From a virus: 43,365 bases of DNA. Where the stretch lies: UHGV virus genome UHGV-1378837; one strand, given 5' to 3'. This document shows positions 20,832 through 35,615 of this stretch, in pieces. How positions within the stretch are numbered: position 1 is the first letter of the stretch; each line of letters begins with the position of its first letter. The translations under genes and the position numbers were made by a program. Below the pieces are notes generated by a model that had not been told where the DNA came from, made no database searches, and worked only from the letters and a program-made list of their open reading frames with translations.

Positions 20832-22004
20832 TTAAGAGCGAGACGTTACATCGTCATTTCCAGATTTCAACGCCTTATATGTATTGTCACACTCAACTAC
20901 TGTGATATGATTCCCGGTCGTTGCCTTGATATCAGTTTTACCGTCCCATGCTGTCCACGTCTTTACATTCTGACCATATTTCACTTCTGGAGCGGAATCA
21001 GCTGCCACTTTGTACTTGTACATGTGTCCTGTTTCGAGGGGAGGTTCAACGGTTAATTTTGTGTTTCCCGATGTACTTCCGGCCGAAGAAGTTACCGTCA
21101 GTGTTCCAAGAACGGGATTATCAGTAACATCAACAACCGCTATTCCGTCAATATATTCTGCAAACAAGGTCAAACCCATGATTGCAAATGCTTCGGAAAC
21201 AGCTGTATTGTAGTTCCCCTGAGTATGGAATCCGATAAGGTTTGTCTCCCCGGCTCCAGTGGTATATACCAGACCCGCCCGTGCAAAATCGCTCTCATTT
21301 GGGTCAACATAGTACATTACAATGTTTTCCACTGGTGTAGCTATTACCTTTCCTCTTGCAATTTCCGAATCGGACAGCAGGAAGATTGTATTGAATCCCA
21401 TGAAATCCTTAAGATACTGGAAACCAAACTGATTCTGCACGGTGATTTCAGCGGCACCTAGATACTGGTAAACATCCAGTATATTCACGAACCCAACCAC
21501 ACCTGTAACATTCCGGTGCATCTGTTTGAATTTGTTTTCTACCATTCCTTTTGCCATAGCAAGGGCCATCTGGAAGGTGGTTTCTGTTCCGGTAAGCGTG
21601 CCGGTATTCAGATATGTATAAAATCGTTCTGTTACATCCGATTGAAGCTGGAACAAAAATTCATCGTCTGTCATCTGAACGGCATTTTCATAGCCGTGGT
21701 CTTTAATTGCTTCAATGGAAACGGCCTTTGCATACTTCTCAATGGTCATTTCCGCATACGTCTTTTCCTTTACTGTGAATTTGCTGTAAGGGATTTCCTC
21801 TCCTTCGCCTACAGCACCGCTCTGTAAAGTTCCTTCTGCGTATTTGCTTTTCAACACCGCGCCCGGTGTTTTCTTAATAGGACGCATAATCCCCAGGATA
21901 TCCCGGAGGTGCTGCCAGTTCCGTTCAAACCGGGTCACAAAATCAATTTCTCGCGCTGTTACCTGTATGTCCGCGCTTGTGATTAAATTGGCTTTTGCTG
22001 CCAT
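20832..22004 (-). CDS. Major capsid protein
   Basis: 390 aa, follows the scaffold gene with overlapping stop/start (ATGA-type at 22004). Confidence 0.65.
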   Translation of the reverse strand: MAAKANLITSADIQVTAREIDFVTRFERNWQHLRDILGIMRPIKKTPGAVLKSKYAEGTLQSGAVGEGEEIPYSKFTVKEKTYAEMTIEKYAKAVSIEAIKDHGYENAVQMTDDEFLFQLQSDVTERFYTYLNTGTLTGTETTFQMALAMAKGMVENKFKQMHRNVTGVVGFVNILDVYQYLGAAEITVQNQFGFQYLKDFMGFNTIFLLSDSEIARGKVIATPVENIVMYYVDPNESDFARAGLVYTTGAGETNLIGFHTQGNYNTAVSEAFAIMGLTLFAEYIDGIAVVDVTDNPVLGTLTVTSSAGSTSGNTKLTVEPPLETGHMYKYKVAADSAPEVKYGQNVKTWTAWDGKTDIKATTGNHITVVECDNTYKALKSGNDDVTSRS

Positions 22005-22615
22005 TACTGTTCTCCTTTACCAAATAAATGTAGGTTACTGGCGATTGCAGACTGTCGCTCAGACGGGTCTTTAATCGCTTCAATATCCTTTCGTGTCATA
22101 GTTCCTGGCGTATTCTGCTTACCTACTGGTGTGGTAAACCTCGCCATGTTCTGCTGTGCATCATCAATAAATGCCGAAGCATCATTTTCTTTCATTTGGG
22201 CCAAAAGGTCATTTAAACCAAGAATTTTACCATCCTTAAATTTAAGACCGGCTTCTTTAATGTCTGCCACCGCAGCTCTCTTTGCTGCCTCACTTGAAAA
22301 CTTTACACTTTCAAGCTCAGTTTTCAATGCATCCGAAAAATCACGCTCGTAAAGCTGCTCCTGGGCTTTTTTTTCGGCTTCTGTAGCCTTCTGTTTCCAG
22401 TCAGATATTTCCCTCTGCATCGTCTCCAGGTCAACCCCTTCAAAGCCTTTCAACGTTGTTTCTGCTGCTTCTGCTTTTTCTTTCCAGGTATCCCGGTCCG
22501 CGCTCAGATTGTCGTTTTCTTTCTGCAACTTTTTGAGGTCTTTCCCATTTTCAGCCATGACAAATGATATCTGTTCCTCTGTCAATCCCTGTGCTTTTAA
22601 TTCTTCGGTTTTCAT
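22004..22615 (-). CDS. Scaffolding protein
   Basis: 203 aa, highly charged E/K-rich coiled-coil composition, immediately upstream of the capsid gene. Confidence 0.55.
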   Translation of the reverse strand: MKTEELKAQGLTEEQISFVMAENGKDLKKLQKENDNLSADRDTWKEKAEAAETTLKGFEGVDLETMQREISDWKQKATEAEKKAQEQLYERDFSDALKTELESVKFSSEAAKRAAVADIKEAGLKFKDGKILGLNDLLAQMKENDASAFIDDAQQNMARFTTPVGKQNTPGTMTRKDIEAIKDPSERQSAIASNLHLFGKGEQ

Positions 22616-22818
22616 TGATGCTTCTCCTTTTCCGTTATTAGGTTATTTGTAGGTGTGTAACCGTCCACCAACGGTTGCCATTTTGTAGGACTTGACTTGT
22701 CCAAAAACGCACATGCCGGAAATTGCATCCGCTTTTCAACCTCCAGGCTGTTCACGCTATGCGCTAGAACCTGTTTCTTTTAAGGACATGTGCTATAGGA
22801 GGGAGGTCAATATAAAGA

Positions 22819-29263: not shown

Positions 29264-30691
29264 TTATTCCTCCTCAAACATCCTTGTCCCATCCTTCGGC
29301 TGCGCTTCCTGTACCATAGCCTTTGCATCTTCTTCGGATAATCCTTCAAACTTCCGAAAATACATCCATGCCGGCACCTTTCCCTGCACAACATATTGCC
29401 ACCATCTTGCCCGGTCCTCCTCACGGTTGTATGTAATGTCCCCAAAATCATATGTGATTTCGTAGTTTCCGGCTGGTGCCAGTCCGTACAGGTCCGCATA
29501 TACATTAAGCGCATATATTGCCCCGTCAAGACAGCTTTCCAGTTTGTCGCGCACATCCTTGATTAATTGGATAGTGCGGCGGTCGTCAGCTTCTACCTGT
29601 GTCGCTGTGACCATGCCTGTTTTTTCATCAAGCACAAAGTACCCGTTGGAATATCCACACTTAAATCCAACAAACGAAAGAAGATTATTAATGCCTGTAA
29701 TCCTGGTATCAGTGTTTAATGAAGGGACTATTTCTCGATAAAAGTTTTCTGCTCCATCTCCAAATACATTTATTGCATAGTGTGGAAGTTTAATATCCGA
29801 TATTCTTGAATTCTTTAAATTCTGTCCACTTTTAAGCATCAATCGGTCATCAACTAAAATAATCTTTTCACTGTCAAATATTTCACCCACATTCCTGCTA
29901 TACGCCACATCAAGGTCCTTTAATTCCTCTATGGCCTCGGCATATATTGGCAATCCTAAAGGTGATGAAATATCCAAATTATTAGCCTGTGGAGTGCGTA
30001 GTATGCCAAACATGGGACCATCTATTTTCTCATTATTGGCCTTGAGTATGGGCGGTGTCTCTGGAAGCAAGTCGGACCACTTAGTCCTGTTTAATACTAT
30101 CGGGTCCCCCACACTTTTTGCAGAGCGGGACACATAAGCTCTATTGGATATGTAATATGGGTAATAGATGTTTTCCCCGTCCTTGACCTCGACAAACCGA
30201 TGATACTCAAACCGGGTATAGTACTTATCGTTCTCACTGTAACTATCTTTGAATACGATTCCATAGATACCTTCATTGTCGCAATCCGTAATGATAAAAT
30301 CCATAGGTGTGAATATGTCCAGTCCCTTACCGTTTGGCTTAAGTATGATTGTGCCGTAGGCCATACCATATTCTACCCAGTGGCGAATCTGGAAATATAT
30401 CTTGTCAATCTGCTCCTGGAGCCACGCCGCCCGCGCGCTTCCATCAATCTGTATTCCGATTGCCAGGGTAGCAAGCCGAGCCGTCTCCGAGCATATAGCC
30501 TTTGCAAAATTGATTGTCTTAACGTTATCGTCAGCATTCACCCAATAGGGAGTACCCCGGTAGATATTGGCACACTCTGCAATCTTGCTTTCCATCTCCG
30601 GGGATACCACTGATTCAACGTTGAAATCTTCTTCTGCCTGTCGCTTGAATATCATTCCTATCACCTTTTTAGCCCATGTTATTAGTCCCAT
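29264..30691 (-). CDS. Portal protein
   Basis: 475 aa, located between the TerL genes and the head morphogenesis gene. Size and position typical of SPP1-type portal proteins. Confidence 0.65.
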   Translation of the reverse strand: MGLITWAKKVIGMIFKRQAEEDFNVESVVSPEMESKIAECANIYRGTPYWVNADDNVKTINFAKAICSETARLATLAIGIQIDGSARAAWLQEQIDKIYFQIRHWVEYGMAYGTIILKPNGKGLDIFTPMDFIITDCDNEGIYGIVFKDSYSENDKYYTRFEYHRFVEVKDGENIYYPYYISNRAYVSRSAKSVGDPIVLNRTKWSDLLPETPPILKANNEKIDGPMFGILRTPQANNLDISSPLGLPIYAEAIEELKDLDVAYSRNVGEIFDSEKIILVDDRLMLKSGQNLKNSRISDIKLPHYAINVFGDGAENFYREIVPSLNTDTRITGINNLLSFVGFKCGYSNGYFVLDEKTGMVTATQVEADDRRTIQLIKDVRDKLESCLDGAIYALNVYADLYGLAPAGNYEITYDFGDITYNREEDRARWWQYVVQGKVPAWMYFRKFEGLSEEDAKAMVQEAQPKDGTRMFEEE

Positions 30692-31031: not shown

Positions 31032-31201
31032 AATTCCATATCATTATCCTGCACACTCAATATTTCAATGTCTTTTCCACTTTCATCACAACCTTTTTTC
31101 CAGATGTGAATACACCAATCCATAATTTTTGAATAATATATTTTCATGTGCATAGGATAGTTGTTTACTTTATCATCAAAAAACTTTAAAAAGTCACTCA
31201 T
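30968..31201 (-). CDS. Hypothetical small protein
   Basis: 77 aa between TerL and the portal gene. Confidence 0.25.
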   Translation of the reverse strand: MSDFLKFFDDKVNNYPMHMKIYYSKIMDWCIHIWKKGCDESGKDIEILSVQDNDMELCFAKAHVALKEWLSQNEGGY

Positions 31202-32028
31202 TACGCGCTGTTTCCCCTTCGCATTGATAATGGGCTTGTGGCATAACGAAGAGCATCTATCCAGTGGTCGTTTCCATCTGGGTAATCCGCTATCACTTCT
31301 CCATTACTGTCAACCTCATGCTCATATTCTATGATTTCCTTGTATGCTCGCGGTGTACGTGCCGGGTCTATAACGATTGTACGGCACTGCAACCACTCAA
31401 AGGTATATTTCCTGCTTCCTGGTGTTACAATGGCTTTACGTGCCGGTAAACCAGCGTCACGGAAGTCAATAATACTTTCTTCTTCATCCACACCGCAATA
31501 GATTGTATAATCATCGTACCCTGCCGTCTGTATATCCTCCGCCATCTTACTATTACGGATTTTACAGCCACCCATTTCATCAAGCAACACAACCAATTCC
31601 TTGTTTGGTATGTAAGCGACCCGGATAAAGGCTTTGGGGTCCGGGAACCAGCCCCAGTCTTGCCCCTGGTATATGCTTTGATATCCCTTGATTTCATCAT
31701 CCGTAATGGTCCTCACATCCAGCATATCAAATATATTTGTACCAAGCCCAACCGGTAAACCTAAATACTCATGATTATATGCCCGCTCATTGGTGGCTTT
31801 AAGATGTTCAGCGCGCTCAATAAACATTTCTCCTAACCACTCTTCCGGCACAGAACGGTAATCGCTTTTATGCCTATACGCACTATCATCCGGCGTATTT
31901 ACATACTGATTCGCCCAGTTGCTTTGACTGATAGGCGGGTTGAAGGATTTAAATACAACAAACTTGCTGCCACCACGCAATACTGACTGTTCAACAGTTC
32001 GTATTTCATCCGGTCCTGCAAATTCGTC
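31201..32028 (-). CDS. terL: Terminase large subunit, exon 2 (Walker B DE + C-terminal nuclease domain)
   Basis: The frame is open upstream of the annotated Met back to 32046: ...CEELDEFAGPDEIRTVEQSVMRGGSKF. Joining exon 1 YLWL to DEFAG restores a Walker B motif hhhhDE. The C-terminal region has conserved acidic residues of a terminase RNaseH-like nuclease (FIRVAYIPN..., HWIDALRY). Confidence 0.65.
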   Translation of the reverse strand, partial: DEFAGPDEIRTVEQSVLRGGSKFVVFKSFNPPISQSNWANQYVNTPDDSAYRHKSDYRSVPEEWLGEMFIERAEHLKATNERAYNHEYLGLPVGLGTNIFDMLDVRTITDDEIKGYQSIYQGQDWGWFPDPKAFIRVAYIPNKELVVLLDEMGGCKIRNSKMAEDIQTAGYDDYTIYCGVDEEESIIDFRDAGLPARKAIVTPGSRKYTFEWLQCRTIVIDPARTPRAYKEIIEYEHEVDSNGEVIADYPDGNDHWIDALRYATSPLSMRRGNSA

Positions 32029-32887
32029 CAGTTCTTCACAATTTTGTTACGCATATACCGTTTCCGTATACACTCACCATATTACTATGGTGTTCAGACT
32101 ATATCATGTAAATGGAATCTGTTACCAATTCCACTCACCCCACTTTTTCAACCTCACTCGAGGCTTACTCTACTCGTTCTCAGTTATAGATTTCTCTATA
32201 ACCTACCTTTCGATAGTCGTTGCACATTATTATTCGACATTCTTATAGCTTTTTCTTCTTACGCATTTATCAATTACAGAAGGACTTACATTATATTTTT
32301 TTGCTAGAGCGTTCATTCCAAACTCTTTATCATGTCCCTTATAAATTCTGCGAATTTCTCTCACTTCATCTTCGCTCAAAACATGATTCCCTTGTAAATA
32401 TCCTCGAACTGGCTTTTTTAAGCCATTTGCATAAGCATGCTGCATTTGCTCCTCGCGGGTAGCCCATTCTAAATTGTCTGCGTTGTTATTGGATTTATCT
32501 CCATCAATGTGATTAACTGTAGGTTTATTTTCTGGGTTATTAACAAAAGCCTCAGCCACAAGCCTATTTGCTCGCTTTGTGTACTGTTTGCCATTCATGC
32601 ACAAGTTGTACCATACATAACCATCATGCGATACTCTTTGCTTTAAAATGACTTCTCGGCCATGCTTATGGCTTTTTACCCTTCCTGTATTGCTAATCTC
32701 ATAGTCCTCAAACCCTTTAATAATTCTCCAAATTTCTTTCATGGTATTTTCTCCTTAAATTCGTTTATTATATTGTACCATAAAAGATGAATTTATTAAA
32801 TATTATGTCGAATAATCTTTGCTCAGGATTGTCCTATTTTGTAGGAGTTTCCCTGAATTTAATGGGTTTAACGTGGTCAGAAGTGTT
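32029..32887 (-). mobile_element. Putative self-splicing group I intron interrupting terL, carrying an HNH homing endonuclease ORF
   Basis: About 860 nt separate the terL ATPase and nuclease coding parts; contains a free-standing HNH ORF; intron ends in G immediately before the GAC GAA (DE) codons. Boundaries are approximate (about 3 nt). Confidence 0.55.
32230..32742 (-). CDS. HNH homing endonuclease (NUMOD4 + HNH + C-terminal HTH)
   Basis: 170 aa; IKGFEDYEISNTGRVKS (NUMOD4-like), VNHIDGDKSNNNADNLEWAT (HNH core), C-terminal IENR/HTH-like segment. Nested within the putative terL intron. Confidence 0.7.
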   Translation of the reverse strand: MKEIWRIIKGFEDYEISNTGRVKSHKHGREVILKQRVSHDGYVWYNLCMNGKQYTKRANRLVAEAFVNNPENKPTVNHIDGDKSNNNADNLEWATREEQMQHAYANGLKKPVRGYLQGNHVLSEDEVREIRRIYKGHDKEFGMNALAKKYNVSPSVIDKCVRRKSYKNVE

Positions 32888-33328
32888 TAACCACAAATAT
32901 TTGAAGTATCCCTTACTAGCTTTAATTGACTTTGTTTTCTTTGCCTTATCAAGTCCACGGAATATTATCTTTTGTCCCGTTGGCTTATAAACGAATCTGT
33001 ATGGGCTTGTACGGGATTCCCACAAATCTGTTACCCCTAATGCGTCTATAGCCCACTGTATCTGTTCAAATACTGATTCTCCAATGGTTACGGCGTACTT
33101 ACGAAATATGACAGCATTGGCCTCTGGGTCATCCATCAAACCTAGCACAATCTCCGCTGATATAAAAGAGGACTTCGCGGAACCTCGCCCTCCGTACAGG
33201 TCGTAATATGTATGGTTCCCTTCTAGGATATCCCAGTGAACACCATAGAAGGAAGGGGCGATTACATCAGTCAGTTTAACAATTTCACCCATACTCTTTG
33301 TTCTGCCTTTCTTCCTTTGGTATATCAT
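32888..33328 (-). CDS. terL: Terminase large subunit, exon 1 (ATPase Walker A region)
   Basis: Walker A LYGGRGSAKSS. Open frame ends 16 codons past YLWL without Walker B acidic residues. The real start is possibly MGEIVKL (33292), just after the TerS stop. Confidence 0.65.
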
Positions 33329-33713
33329 TCAAAATAGTAATACCTTCTGTGTTATCTCCCCTTTTAGTGTTATCCATAAACTTATCAACCACAATTCCCA
33401 TAGCTGTTGCAATTTGTGAAATAGTAGCGTTTTCTAATTTCTTTGGGTCTGCTAACTTCTTTAAATATTCATCAATGATTCCCTGCGCCTGTTCTTTTCG
33501 GGAATCCATATAAGCTAACATGTCCGCTGTGTTCTGTTCCTTTTTTTGTTTGCATTTTTGTGCAATATCTGCATTTTGTGTGCATATTTTTTTGACTGTG
33601 TTCAGCGCCACTCCAAATCTCTTTGCTGTAGCATTGTAGCTTCCAGTCTCTACATAATCAGCAATAATATCTTTTTTCTGCTTATCCGTCAGTCTGGAAG
33701 CCACAATCACCAC
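33285..33713 (-). CDS. terS: Terminase small subunit
   Basis: 142 aa, N-terminal HTH (LTDKQKKDIIADYVETGSYNATAKRFGVALNTVKK), immediately upstream of terL. The late-promoter motif lies 70 nt upstream. Confidence 0.6.
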   Translation of the reverse strand: MVIVASRLTDKQKKDIIADYVETGSYNATAKRFGVALNTVKKICTQNADIAQKCKQKKEQNTADMLAYMDSRKEQAQGIIDEYLKKLADPKKLENATISQIATAMGIVVDKFMDNTKRGDNTEGITILNDIPKEERQNKEYG

Positions 33714-34452: not shown

Positions 34453-35499
34453 CTACACATTAACCCTTTCTCTTATCGACCGAAGGGTGCGGGGATTAGA
34501 CTGTGCATAATACCGCGCTGTAACTCCTGGGTCTGCATGGCCCATAATCTCCTGTATTGTCCCAATATCAACCCCTCTGTTCTTCAAATTCATTCCCAGC
34601 GTCTTGCGTGACTTATGCGGATATCCCCGGCATGTTAATCCAGCCCTCTTTTTTATAGTTTTCAATATTGCCCGGAATCCACAAGTGGTCATTTTTCCAT
34701 ACGGCTTTCTGGAGCGTGGGAACATATATGGACAATCATCTTTCCTATTGTTCATATACAGGCCATAGTAATGTCGCGCATCATCATCAAGATAGATTGT
34801 ACGGTATCTTCCTCCTTTTTCTCCTTGTATCCATATATCTCCGGTTCTCATGTCTATCTGGTCCAGAGTTATTTCTGCAATCTCCCCTATCCTGGCCCCA
34901 GTACTTCGAAGTACCTCCAGCAAGGCCCTCTCGCGGATATTTTTGCACGCATCCCTTAATCTTGCAGATTCTTCTGGACTGTAGTAATCAATCGGTTTAA
35001 TTGGTACTTTCTTAGCTGGGATAGATTCTGCGGGATTGTCTGTGATTAATTTTTCAAGGCGCATCCATGTAAAGAATGCTGACAAAAAACGGCGCTCGTT
35101 ATTATAAGTGCTAGGCTGGTTTTTCTTTCCTCCACTGGACACATTTCTGATTTCATATCGCGATAAATACCAATCAATATCAGTGGTGTCCATCTGGTCC
35201 AGTGATTTTGTGCTTATCTCTGTCAGCAATCTTCGTATAGAATTAAGATAGTTTTCTTTGGTTCCTCTTGCTAAATCACGCTTTTTAATCAGGAATAACT
35301 GTATTATGTACTGATTCCGTTGACTTATATCATCTTTTCTTTCTACTGGAAGTGTAGTTATTTCTTCCATGTTCACCCTAACCAATTCCTGCTGCATTAC
35401 ATTTTGCAGAATGGTAAGAGTCTGCTGCTCCATGATATATAAGGACATTGCTACCAGTACATTGTTGATGATTTCGGCTTTTATTGTCTGTGTACTCAT
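34453..35499 (-). CDS. Second tyrosine recombinase (phage integrase family), internal to the genome
   Basis: Start MSTQTIKAEI at 35499 with AGGAGG RBS. Catalytic motifs RSTGARIGE, PHKSRKT, IMGHADPGVTARYY (R...H..R...H...Y). N-terminal SAM-like core-binding domain. Confidence 0.8.
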   Translation of the reverse strand: MSTQTIKAEIINNVLVAMSLYIMEQQTLTILQNVMQQELVRVNMEEITTLPVERKDDISQRNQYIIQLFLIKKRDLARGTKENYLNSIRRLLTEISTKSLDQMDTTDIDWYLSRYEIRNVSSGGKKNQPSTYNNERRFLSAFFTWMRLEKLITDNPAESIPAKKVPIKPIDYYSPEESARLRDACKNIRERALLEVLRSTGARIGEIAEITLDQIDMRTGDIWIQGEKGGRYRTIYLDDDARHYYGLYMNNRKDDCPYMFPRSRKPYGKMTTCGFRAILKTIKKRAGLTCRGYPHKSRKTLGMNLKNRGVDIGTIQEIMGHADPGVTARYYAQSNPRTLRSIRERVNV

Positions 35500-35570
35500 A
35501 ATTATATCCTCCTCATTCGTATTGATTTTCACGTCCGAGTAAGGTATAATATACTCAGACGTATTTACGG

Positions 35571-35615
35571 GAGCGGTGGAATCATCTTGGCGGGTGTCCA
35601 CCGCTCAGTTTTTAT
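35571..35615 (+). terminator. Perfect 10-bp inverted repeat GAGCGGTGGA...TCCACCGCTC with 16-nt loop followed by a T-tract (plus-strand intrinsic terminator or recombinase binding site)
   Basis: 35571-35606 hairpin then AGTTTTTATT. Lies 70 nt upstream (minus sense) of the second recombinase start. No plus-strand gene precedes it. Confidence 0.4.

Follow-up and report, generated by a model that had tools for sequence, protein, structure and literature searches.

The large terminase gene (TerL) of UHGV virus genome UHGV-1378837 raises a simple question: are its two halves, which lie apart on the DNA with a homing endonuclease gene between them, two genes or a single gene that carries an intron? 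The stretch of DNA analyzed, hereafter the window, is 43,365 nucleotides (nt) long. We conclude with high confidence that a mobile, IA-type group I intron, carrying an I-HmuI-like NUMOD4-HNH endonuclease gene in its P6a loop, interrupts the TerL gene of what is a temperate phage or prophage. This reading is supported by a precise indel, two sub-threshold Rfam half-matches, a full set of helices with covariation, and the stability of the intron after deletion of its open reading frame (ORF).

According to the ORF list, the interval 31201..33328 carries a two-piece large terminase gene, as a sequence-only reading of the window had proposed; it lies on the minus strand. Its N-terminal ORF ends with ...KGYFKYLWL followed by unrelated codons and a stop; the earlier description of an N-part with the Walker A motif GGRGSAKS that runs to ...KYLWL and then stops holds, with 17 such codons rather than the 16 counted before. 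The nuclease frame is likewise open upstream, as had been noticed. The ORFs, and the exons into which they resolve, are as follows.

33328..32834, minus strand: N-terminal TerL ORF, 164 amino acids (aa), Walker A GGRGSAKS at residues 46-53
31980..31201, minus strand: C-terminal TerL ORF, 259 aa, same frame open 5' to ...QNCEELDEFAGPDE
33328..32889, minus strand: TerL exon 1, the ATPase N-part with Walker A, ending in TT, bases 1-2 of the Phe147 codon
32038..31201, minus strand: TerL exon 2, starting with T (base 3 of the Phe147 codon) and GAA GAA (the Walker B glutamates), then the remaining ATPase part, the putative nuclease domain and the stop

The exon junction was set by alignment to the TerL of Dulem virus 35, of MT835739 and of 80 relatives from IMG/VR. 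The uninterrupted TerL proteins of Dulem virus 35 and MT835739 read KYLWFEELDEFAG at this point, within the annotated stretch ...KGYFKYLWFEELDEFAG..., and the homologous DNA is TGG TTT GAG GAA, compared with TGG TT, 850 nt, T GAA GAA in the window. The Phe147 codon is thus split TT/T within the Walker B motif LWF/EE (here and below, a slash marks the insertion point). In a distant BLASTN search against isolate and metagenomic phage genomes, query bases 49-2128 were matched by only 1230 bases of the Dulem virus 35 record (PP511522), leaving exactly 850 over. Similarly, none of the 80 IMG/VR relatives fetched as best matches to the spliced protein, with aa identities of up to 97%, has an interruption in TerL, and each aligns with the joined exons in one high-scoring segment pair spanning position 440/441. 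Judged by these alignments, the window differs from 80 of 80 intron-less relatives by a clean 850-nt indel, more than chance would give.

The joined exons are in frame and encode 425 aa. The spliced protein matches Pfam Terminase_3 (PF04466) in one stretch that runs from residue 39 to 240 and covers profile positions 2-200 of 201 (131.7 bits, E 3.4e-38), and with the 850 nt removed TerL is collinear with its uninterrupted homologues and has a Walker B motif, LWFEE, identical to theirs; the alignment to intron-less TerL proposed in the sequence-only reading supports its intron interpretation, with a different junction. Terminase_3C, the C-terminal RNase H-like nuclease domain, scores 22.3 bits, below its 26.7-bit cut-off, and the C-terminal region is collinear with full-length homologues up to the final residue. 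The predicted spliced RNA junction is ...TTGTGGTT/TGAAGAAC..., or in longer form ...AAATATTTGTGGTT joined to TGAAGAACTGGACG..., and the predicted junction-spanning peptide is YLWFEELDEFAGPDEIR.

Two other boundaries were discarded. The earlier proposal had joined YLWL to DEFAG as a Walker B motif of the form hhhhDE; homologues contradict it, as the motif is LWFEE, and that junction deletes three residues (EEL) kept by all homologues and has A rather than U before the 5' splice site. Its intron bounds, 32887..32029, are off by 1 nt at the 5' end and by 10 nt at the 3' end. A shifted boundary, TGGT/.../GTGAAG (WCEE), was rejected because the intron would then end in U and homologues have WFEE.

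Two side observations concern the ends of exon 1. The start of TerL is ambiguous: the longest ORF begins at ATG 33328, and an alternative ATG at 33292, where the alignment of many homologues begins (residue 17), overlaps the stop of the gene in the TerS position (ATGGGTGA). The read-through tail after exon 1 (32834..32888, minus strand; LNTSDHVKPIKF...) is similar to the tails of the unrelated TerL lineages L175 and L186 (FNISDQVKPLEF...), for which conserved RNA in the P1-P3 region of the intron, rather than a function of the peptide, is the simplest explanation.

The intron itself resolves into the following parts.

32888..32039, minus strand: group I intron, IA-like, 850 nt, starting AAACAC... 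and ending ...AACAAAAUUG; based on the exact indel, Rfam, covariation and the minimum free energy (MFE) fold
32873..32894, minus strand: P1 hairpin, exon GUGGUU (32894..32889) with guide GACCAC (32878..32873), the last exon U forming a U·G pair at the 5' splice site
32883..32880 with 32037..32034, minus strand: possible P10, CUUC with exon 2 GAAG, read from sequence
32817..32866, minus strand: 5' half of the ribozyme core, from the Rfam match, RNAalifold and pair counts
32866..32861, minus strand: P3 5' strand, CCCAUU
within 32817..32866, minus strand: P4 (UCAGGG/UCCUGA), P5 (CUCCUA/UAGGA) and the P6 5' strand (GCA)
32229..32816, minus strand: P6a, a perfect 12-base-pair (bp) stem, AUUAUUCGACAU (32816..32805) with AUGUCGAAUAAU (32240..32229), closing a 564-nt loop with the endonuclease gene
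32039..32228, minus strand: 3' half of the ribozyme, from the Rfam match, covariation and a core motif present in more than 120 contigs
within 32039..32228, minus strand: P6 3' strand UGU, then J6/7
32220..32215, minus strand: P7 5' strand, A-C(bulge)-GACU, which can pair with AGUCU (32100..32096)
32202..32183, minus strand: P7.1 hairpin, followed by conserved AGUAGAGUA
32165..32150, minus strand: P7.2 hairpin, with both-side changes at 6 of 6 pairs across the family
32144..32139, minus strand: P3 3' strand, AGUGGG
32132..32114, minus strand: P8 hairpin, then J8/7 AUGAUAU
32100..32096, minus strand: P7 3' strand, AGUCU
32092..32075, minus strand: P9
32073..32051, minus strand: P9.1, followed by the tail GUAACAAAAUUG

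The helices therefore follow the order P1–(no P2)–P3–P4–P5–P4'–P6–P6a(ORF loop)–P6'–P7–P7.1–P7.2–P3'–P8–J8/7–P7'–P9–P9.1–omega-G. The terminal G (omega-G) is the last intron base, 32039, a boundary fixed independently by the intron-less alleles, and the tail GUAACAnnAnUG is common to family members at the 3' end. P1 was read from sequence and recovered by an unconstrained MFE fold; it is identical in Clostridium perfringens phage CPQ4 (MZ401006), and the guide of L210, GGCCAC, still pairs. P2 is absent from the relatives L223 and L252 and present in L237. A P2 helix is usual among phage IA2 introns. The helix content (P7.1/P7.2) suggests an IA-like subgroup and, there being no P2, the intron is called IA-like with no firm IA2 assignment. 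Its G+C content is 35.8%, compared with 44.1% for the TerL exons and 40.8% for the whole window, and this low value is consistent with a foreign origin.

The 3' strand of the P6a stem includes the final codons and the stop of the endonuclease ORF. In the 24-sequence alignment described below, P6a columns are 98.1% paired, with both-side changes in 5 of 5 pairs, and its counterpart in CPQ4 is a 10-bp stem, UUUAUAACUU/AAGUUAUAAA, with full compensation. Three other pairings were set aside. The first P6 candidate, AAAGAU/AUCUUU, which also appears in the Rfam half-alignment, was rejected on family comparison; the conserved family frame GCN-AAG-(P6a)-AA-N'GU identifies the 12-bp stem spanning the ORF as the real P6a. 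A hairpin found by RNAfold and partly by RNAalifold, CUAUC-GAAA-GGUAG, competes with P7, is not conserved in CPQ4 and has RNAalifold pairs that never vary; it is taken to be spurious, or a folding intermediate at most. Finally, a P3 register of ACCC/GGGU alone was replaced by CCCAUU/AGUGGG, which RNAalifold finds and which is compensated in CPQ4.

Support for a ribozyme comes from several directions. Run in E-value mode on a 1.4-kilobase (kb) region, the Rfam model Intron_gpI (RF00028) gives two half-matches that flank the ORF: 32856..32773 (22.3 bits, E 0.004), covering model positions 60-142 in the P4-P6 region, and 32222..32075 (29.5 bits, E 3e-5), which includes conserved GAUAUAGUCU and the P9 hairpin. 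Those ORF-less relatives with shared core motifs that were tested reach 55-94 bits and so pass the 50-bit threshold of RF00028. When IMG/VR was scanned with two exact patterns, the 3' core AACGACUAUCGAAA...AGUAGAGUA...GAUAUAGUCU turned up in more than 120 viral contigs, many copies lacking an ORF; a pattern with the guide sequence gave near-identical copies only, useless for covariation, so the broader 3'-core pattern was adopted.

Covariation was measured on 24 sequences: the window intron and the CPQ4 intron, with their P6a loops replaced by GAAA, and 22 ORF-less relatives. The alignment was anchored on strongly conserved motifs, with members of our own choosing. Given no input structure, RNAalifold returns P3, P4, P5, P6, P6a, P7.2, P8 and P9, with compensatory changes in 36 of 44 pairs. 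Once the P7 pseudoknot is added, the resulting 46-pair structure has standard pairs in 94.9% of cells versus 34-42% when partners are slid by 1-3 columns, a control in which the unslid structure is favored by its prediction on the same alignment. The covariation score is 0.686 versus at most 0.123 for the slid controls, and none of 500 shuffles reaches any observed measure. By eye, P3, P4, P7.2 and P9 are compensated between the window and CPQ4, and P6a is wholly different yet perfectly complementary. Reduced to 313 nt by deletion of the ORF, the intron has an unconstrained MFE of -98.4 kcal/mol (z = -8.1), and this fold reproduces P1, P3-P6a, P7.1, P7.2, P8, P9 and P9.1, that is, all helices except the P7 pseudoknot. 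The group I intron with an HNH endonuclease inside TerL that had been put forward from the letters of the window is thus supported by the indel, the Rfam half-matches, covariation and stability.

The gap between the TerL pieces also contains, as first noticed, a complete NUMOD4-HNH ORF, with both Pfam domains above their cut-offs.

32742..32230, minus strand: homing endonuclease gene, 170 aa, with NUMOD4, HNH_3 and a C-terminal helix-turn-helix, in the P6a loop
32756..32751, minus strand: Shine-Dalgarno sequence AAGGAG, 8 nt 5' of the endonuclease ATG
32780..32772, minus strand: extended -10-like sequence TGGTACAAT, 5' of the endonuclease gene

The bit scores, with cut-offs in parentheses, are 47.5 (23.4) for NUMOD4 and 38.4 (24.8) for HNH_3; the C-terminal helix-turn-helix is weak. 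The only solved structure matched is I-HmuI (PDB 1U3E; E 1.3e-14, residues 5-107), and the alignment to it keeps ...NH.DG.K.NN...NL.W, the HNH motif. At the position equivalent to the -10-like sequence, CPQ4, L088 and L210 carry TGGTATAAT. Enzymes of the I-HmuI group nick DNA in a strand-specific way, and their genes lie in group I introns within phage genes for DNA polymerase; the nick falls in one strand a few nt from the insertion site, and phages that are very divergent carry these introns at the same site (PMC3428280). ORFs reaching into structured intron sequence, as at P6a, are described in a review of bacterial group I introns (PMC3984707). By analogy, we infer that the endonuclease may be a nicking homing enzyme aimed at the Walker B region of intron-less TerL.

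The intron is found at the same nucleotide in nine other contigs from different samples (L084-L089, L210, L211 and L327). It is 99.9-100% identical to that of the window in L085, L086, L087, L089 and L327 and 98.9% identical in L088, and the exons of L085-L089 and L327 are only about 82-94% identical, except exon 1 of L086 (100%). For L210 and L211, identity is 95% in the intron and 65-72% in the exons. On sequence comparison, a near-identical intron within diverged exons points to recent homing. The intron-bearing alleles share the flanks TTGTGGTT/TGAAGA, and most intron-less alleles carry other synonymous codons, CTATGGTT/CGAGGA or similar; the shared flanks would fit both co-conversion during homing and the pairing needs of P1 and P10. 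L010, an intron-less allele whose flanks (...TATTTGTGGTTTGAAGAACTGGAC...) are almost identical to those of the window, is plausibly a homing target or the product of precise intron loss.

Individual contigs add further observations. L086 (IMGVR_UViG_3300045988_067708) is a mosaic: its identity to the window is 100% in exon 1 and in the intron but 81.7% in exon 2, which suggests a recombination breakpoint at or beside the intron. L327 (UQRE01000019.1), a 44-kb contig of a metagenome-assembled genome (MAG) from uncultured Dorea sp. UMGS566, is the sole match to the intron pattern in 185,579 representative genomes and hints at a Lachnospiraceae host for the phage group. Among the fetched loci, the same Walker B point is interrupted in six further TerL lineages (L175, L185, L186, L259, L295 and L319), where exon 1 ends ...W(F/I) and coding resumes at EE.... 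Beyond these, L237 (6169-8763) holds three family introns in 2.6 kb, with just 14 nt between two of these, and L311 (11087-12809) two group I introns of the same family, all above the Rfam threshold.

Several observations weigh against the group I reading. At its gathering threshold (50 bits), Intron_gpI has no match in the whole window, so that the covariance-model search suggested by the sequence-only reading finds nothing at gathering level and, in E-value mode, gives the half-matches of 29.5 and 22.3 bits; beside the missing match stands the 564-nt ORF loop, which cuts the ribozyme into halves. P2 is missing, with GACCAC running straight into GUUAAAC and P3. The P7 columns are invariant in all 24 sequences, which makes P7 compatible with the model without covariation support of its own, and P7.1 comes from reading the sequence and from the MFE fold and lies outside the formal pair count. 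The promoter scan of the region is not above chance, with 6 sites found and 6.1 expected, and the same scan found no terminator-like site there. Splicing, endonuclease activity and homing are themselves what we infer.

Of the competing explanations, the one that survives best is that the intron is dead or splices poorly, which would make TerL a pseudogene and the prophage defective. An integrase gene in the window (34453..35601) means that the element could be a resident, possibly decaying prophage, and some phage introns need host factors, several Bastillevirinae introns having been spliced in vivo and not in vitro (PMC11878797). In the window, however, all 46 counted pairs are standard, the invariant core motifs are intact, and the reading frames of the two exons and of the endonuclease are uninterrupted. 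Identical copies in at least six independent contigs with diverged exons are, moreover, as for an active mobile element. We therefore consider a dead intron very unlikely.

An even smaller probability attaches to the alternative, already raised when the window was first read, that TerL is truly two polypeptides, split by a free-standing HNH gene, whose halves are translated separately and assemble. The mechanical ORF list does contain two ORFs, and the public records of CPQ4 (L003, 1748-3824) and Lactobacillus phage LBR48 (L328, GU967410, 975-3114) show three separate coding sequences (CDSs), 'large terminase', 'endonuclease' and 'terminase large subunit', without an intron feature. Yet the break falls within one codon of the Walker B strand (LWF/EE), and the first start in the exon 2 frame, TTG 31980, has no Shine-Dalgarno sequence before it and would lose FEELDEFAGPDEIRTVEQSV, including both catalytic glutamates. 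The HNH ORF is also flanked by a conserved, covarying group I ribozyme, which a free-standing gene would not need, and TerL is a single gene in 80 of the 80 fetched relatives, so that the two-polypeptide alternative is not supported. An assembly artefact or a chance resemblance, in favor of which nothing was found, has a negligible probability, as the nine other contigs carry the 850-nt insertion at an identical position, a recurrence in independent assemblies that excludes the former, and the covariation statistics are far beyond their controls.

Under the favored reading of an intact group I intron, the following sequence of events is proposed. After transcription, the intron would fold, with the end of exon 1, GUGGUU, pairing with the guide GACCAC to form P1, in which a U·G pair marks the splice site. 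Free guanosine held in P7 would then attack after U32889. By analogy with the Tetrahymena intron, guanosine would bind at the G-C pair adjacent to the bulged C. G32039, the last intron base, would next take the guanosine site, P10 (CUUC with GAAG) would line up exon 2, and ligation would give ...UGG UUU GAA GAA.... The endonuclease, translated from its own ribosome-binding site, would nick or cut intron-less TerL alleles of co-resident phage genomes, and repair by recombination would copy the intron with short flanking exon tracts into the target, which constitutes homing.

A further idea is that the intron acts as a timing or energy gate on packaging, as functional TerL would need splicing and hence a free guanosine nucleotide. 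A 'molecular on-switch' has been discussed for Bastillevirinae introns (PMC11878797). For the window we regard such a gate as improbable; if true, the Walker B placement would tie terminase production to the GTP level and to RNA folding.

Several known systems were compared with the intron. That of CPQ4 has the same insertion point, read directly (TGG TT/T GAA GA), the same P1 (GUGGUU/GACCAC), a homologous ribozyme with 61% identity to the window intron, and a NUMOD4-HNH gene in the same P6a loop. It differs in its exons (about 53% identical at the DNA level), in its intron length (799 nt) and in the stop codon of its ORF, which runs into J6/7. The C. perfringens phage vB_CpeP_PMQ04 (MZ995505) has the same BLAST match as CPQ4, and only the endonuclease CDS was seen under the match. 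In LBR48, the 3' ribozyme half is related (70% over 135 nt) and an endonuclease gene lies between the TerL pieces; here, however, the site (about 1320-2125) is FRGL/DD, some 28 codons upstream of the Walker B site, and the guide GCCCAC pairs with GUGGGU. A BLAST search of isolate phage genomes with the 3' half of the ribozyme as query returned four records only. The I-HmuI introns resemble that of the window as phage group I introns encoding an HNH endonuclease and differ in their host gene, DNA polymerase rather than TerL. Finally, P7.1/P7.2 between P7 and P3', the J8/7-P7 sequence GAUAUAGUC and the looped-out ORF are what we take to be a likeness to the phage IA2 introns of T4 td/nrdB/sunY and Twort; unlike those, the window intron lacks P2, its subgroup being assigned by helix content only.

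Terminase introns have been reported before. They include one in phage LL-H (Mikkonen and Alatossava, 1995, as cited in PMC4299906), two introns in Bacillus phage Moonbeam (PMC4299906) and one in Streptococcus phage 2972 and a related prophage (PMC6356513). In the Bastillevirinae, TerL is split in 5 of 52, with splicing shown in vitro and/or in vivo (PMC11878797), and a review names terminases among the typical targets of phage introns (PMC3984707). The common ground with these systems is a group I intron in TerL, self-splicing in theirs and predicted to be so in the window, often with an HNH gene. In contrast, the window represents a temperate phage or prophage lineage whose intron also occurs on the Dorea MAG contig, and in the phage collection no BLAST-level similarity of its intron to those of LL-H, Moonbeam, 2972 or the Bastillevirinae was found.

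The genes around TerL make up a phage or prophage morphogenesis region.

34453..35601, minus strand: tyrosine integrase (Pfam Phage_integrase, E 3.5e-30), just upstream of the packaging genes
33285..33713: small DNA-binding protein in the TerS position
29264..30691: portal gene (phrog_533), with two small ORFs between TerL and it
22615..22004, minus strand: head scaffold gene (phrog_194)
20832..22004: major head gene

Given the integrase beside the packaging genes, the element is probably temperate or a prophage. Elsewhere in the window, a RAGATH-21 RNA (22794..22708, 83.5 bits) and a GP20-b RNA (22702..22639, 40.9 bits) lie back to back on the minus strand, both above the Rfam gathering threshold, directly 5' of the genes for the head scaffold and the major head protein.

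Terminase introns were well documented before, and the case described here leaves the understanding of how group I introns work unchanged; what is new is only the lineage, the exact coordinates, the recurrent use of the Walker B codon for insertion and the marks of a recent sweep. For annotation, the consequences are practical. Gene callers and public records split such a TerL into two or three genes, as in CPQ4 and LBR48, and thereby break TerL phylogeny, packaging-type prediction and completeness checks, whereas exact splice coordinates allow the full 425-aa TerL to be reconstructed. The endonuclease is a candidate sequence-specific nickase, with the intron-less junction ...TATTTGTGGTTTGAAGAACTGGAC... 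as its likely target. The Walker B codon, LWF/EE, of Terminase_3-type TerL is a recurrent insertion point, used in CPQ4, L175, L185, L186, L259, L295 and L319. Within the phage group of the window, the same element may be sweeping through, and recombining, the TerL alleles of related phages, and a 100% identical intron within exons that have diverged by 6-18% offers a natural example of recent homing.

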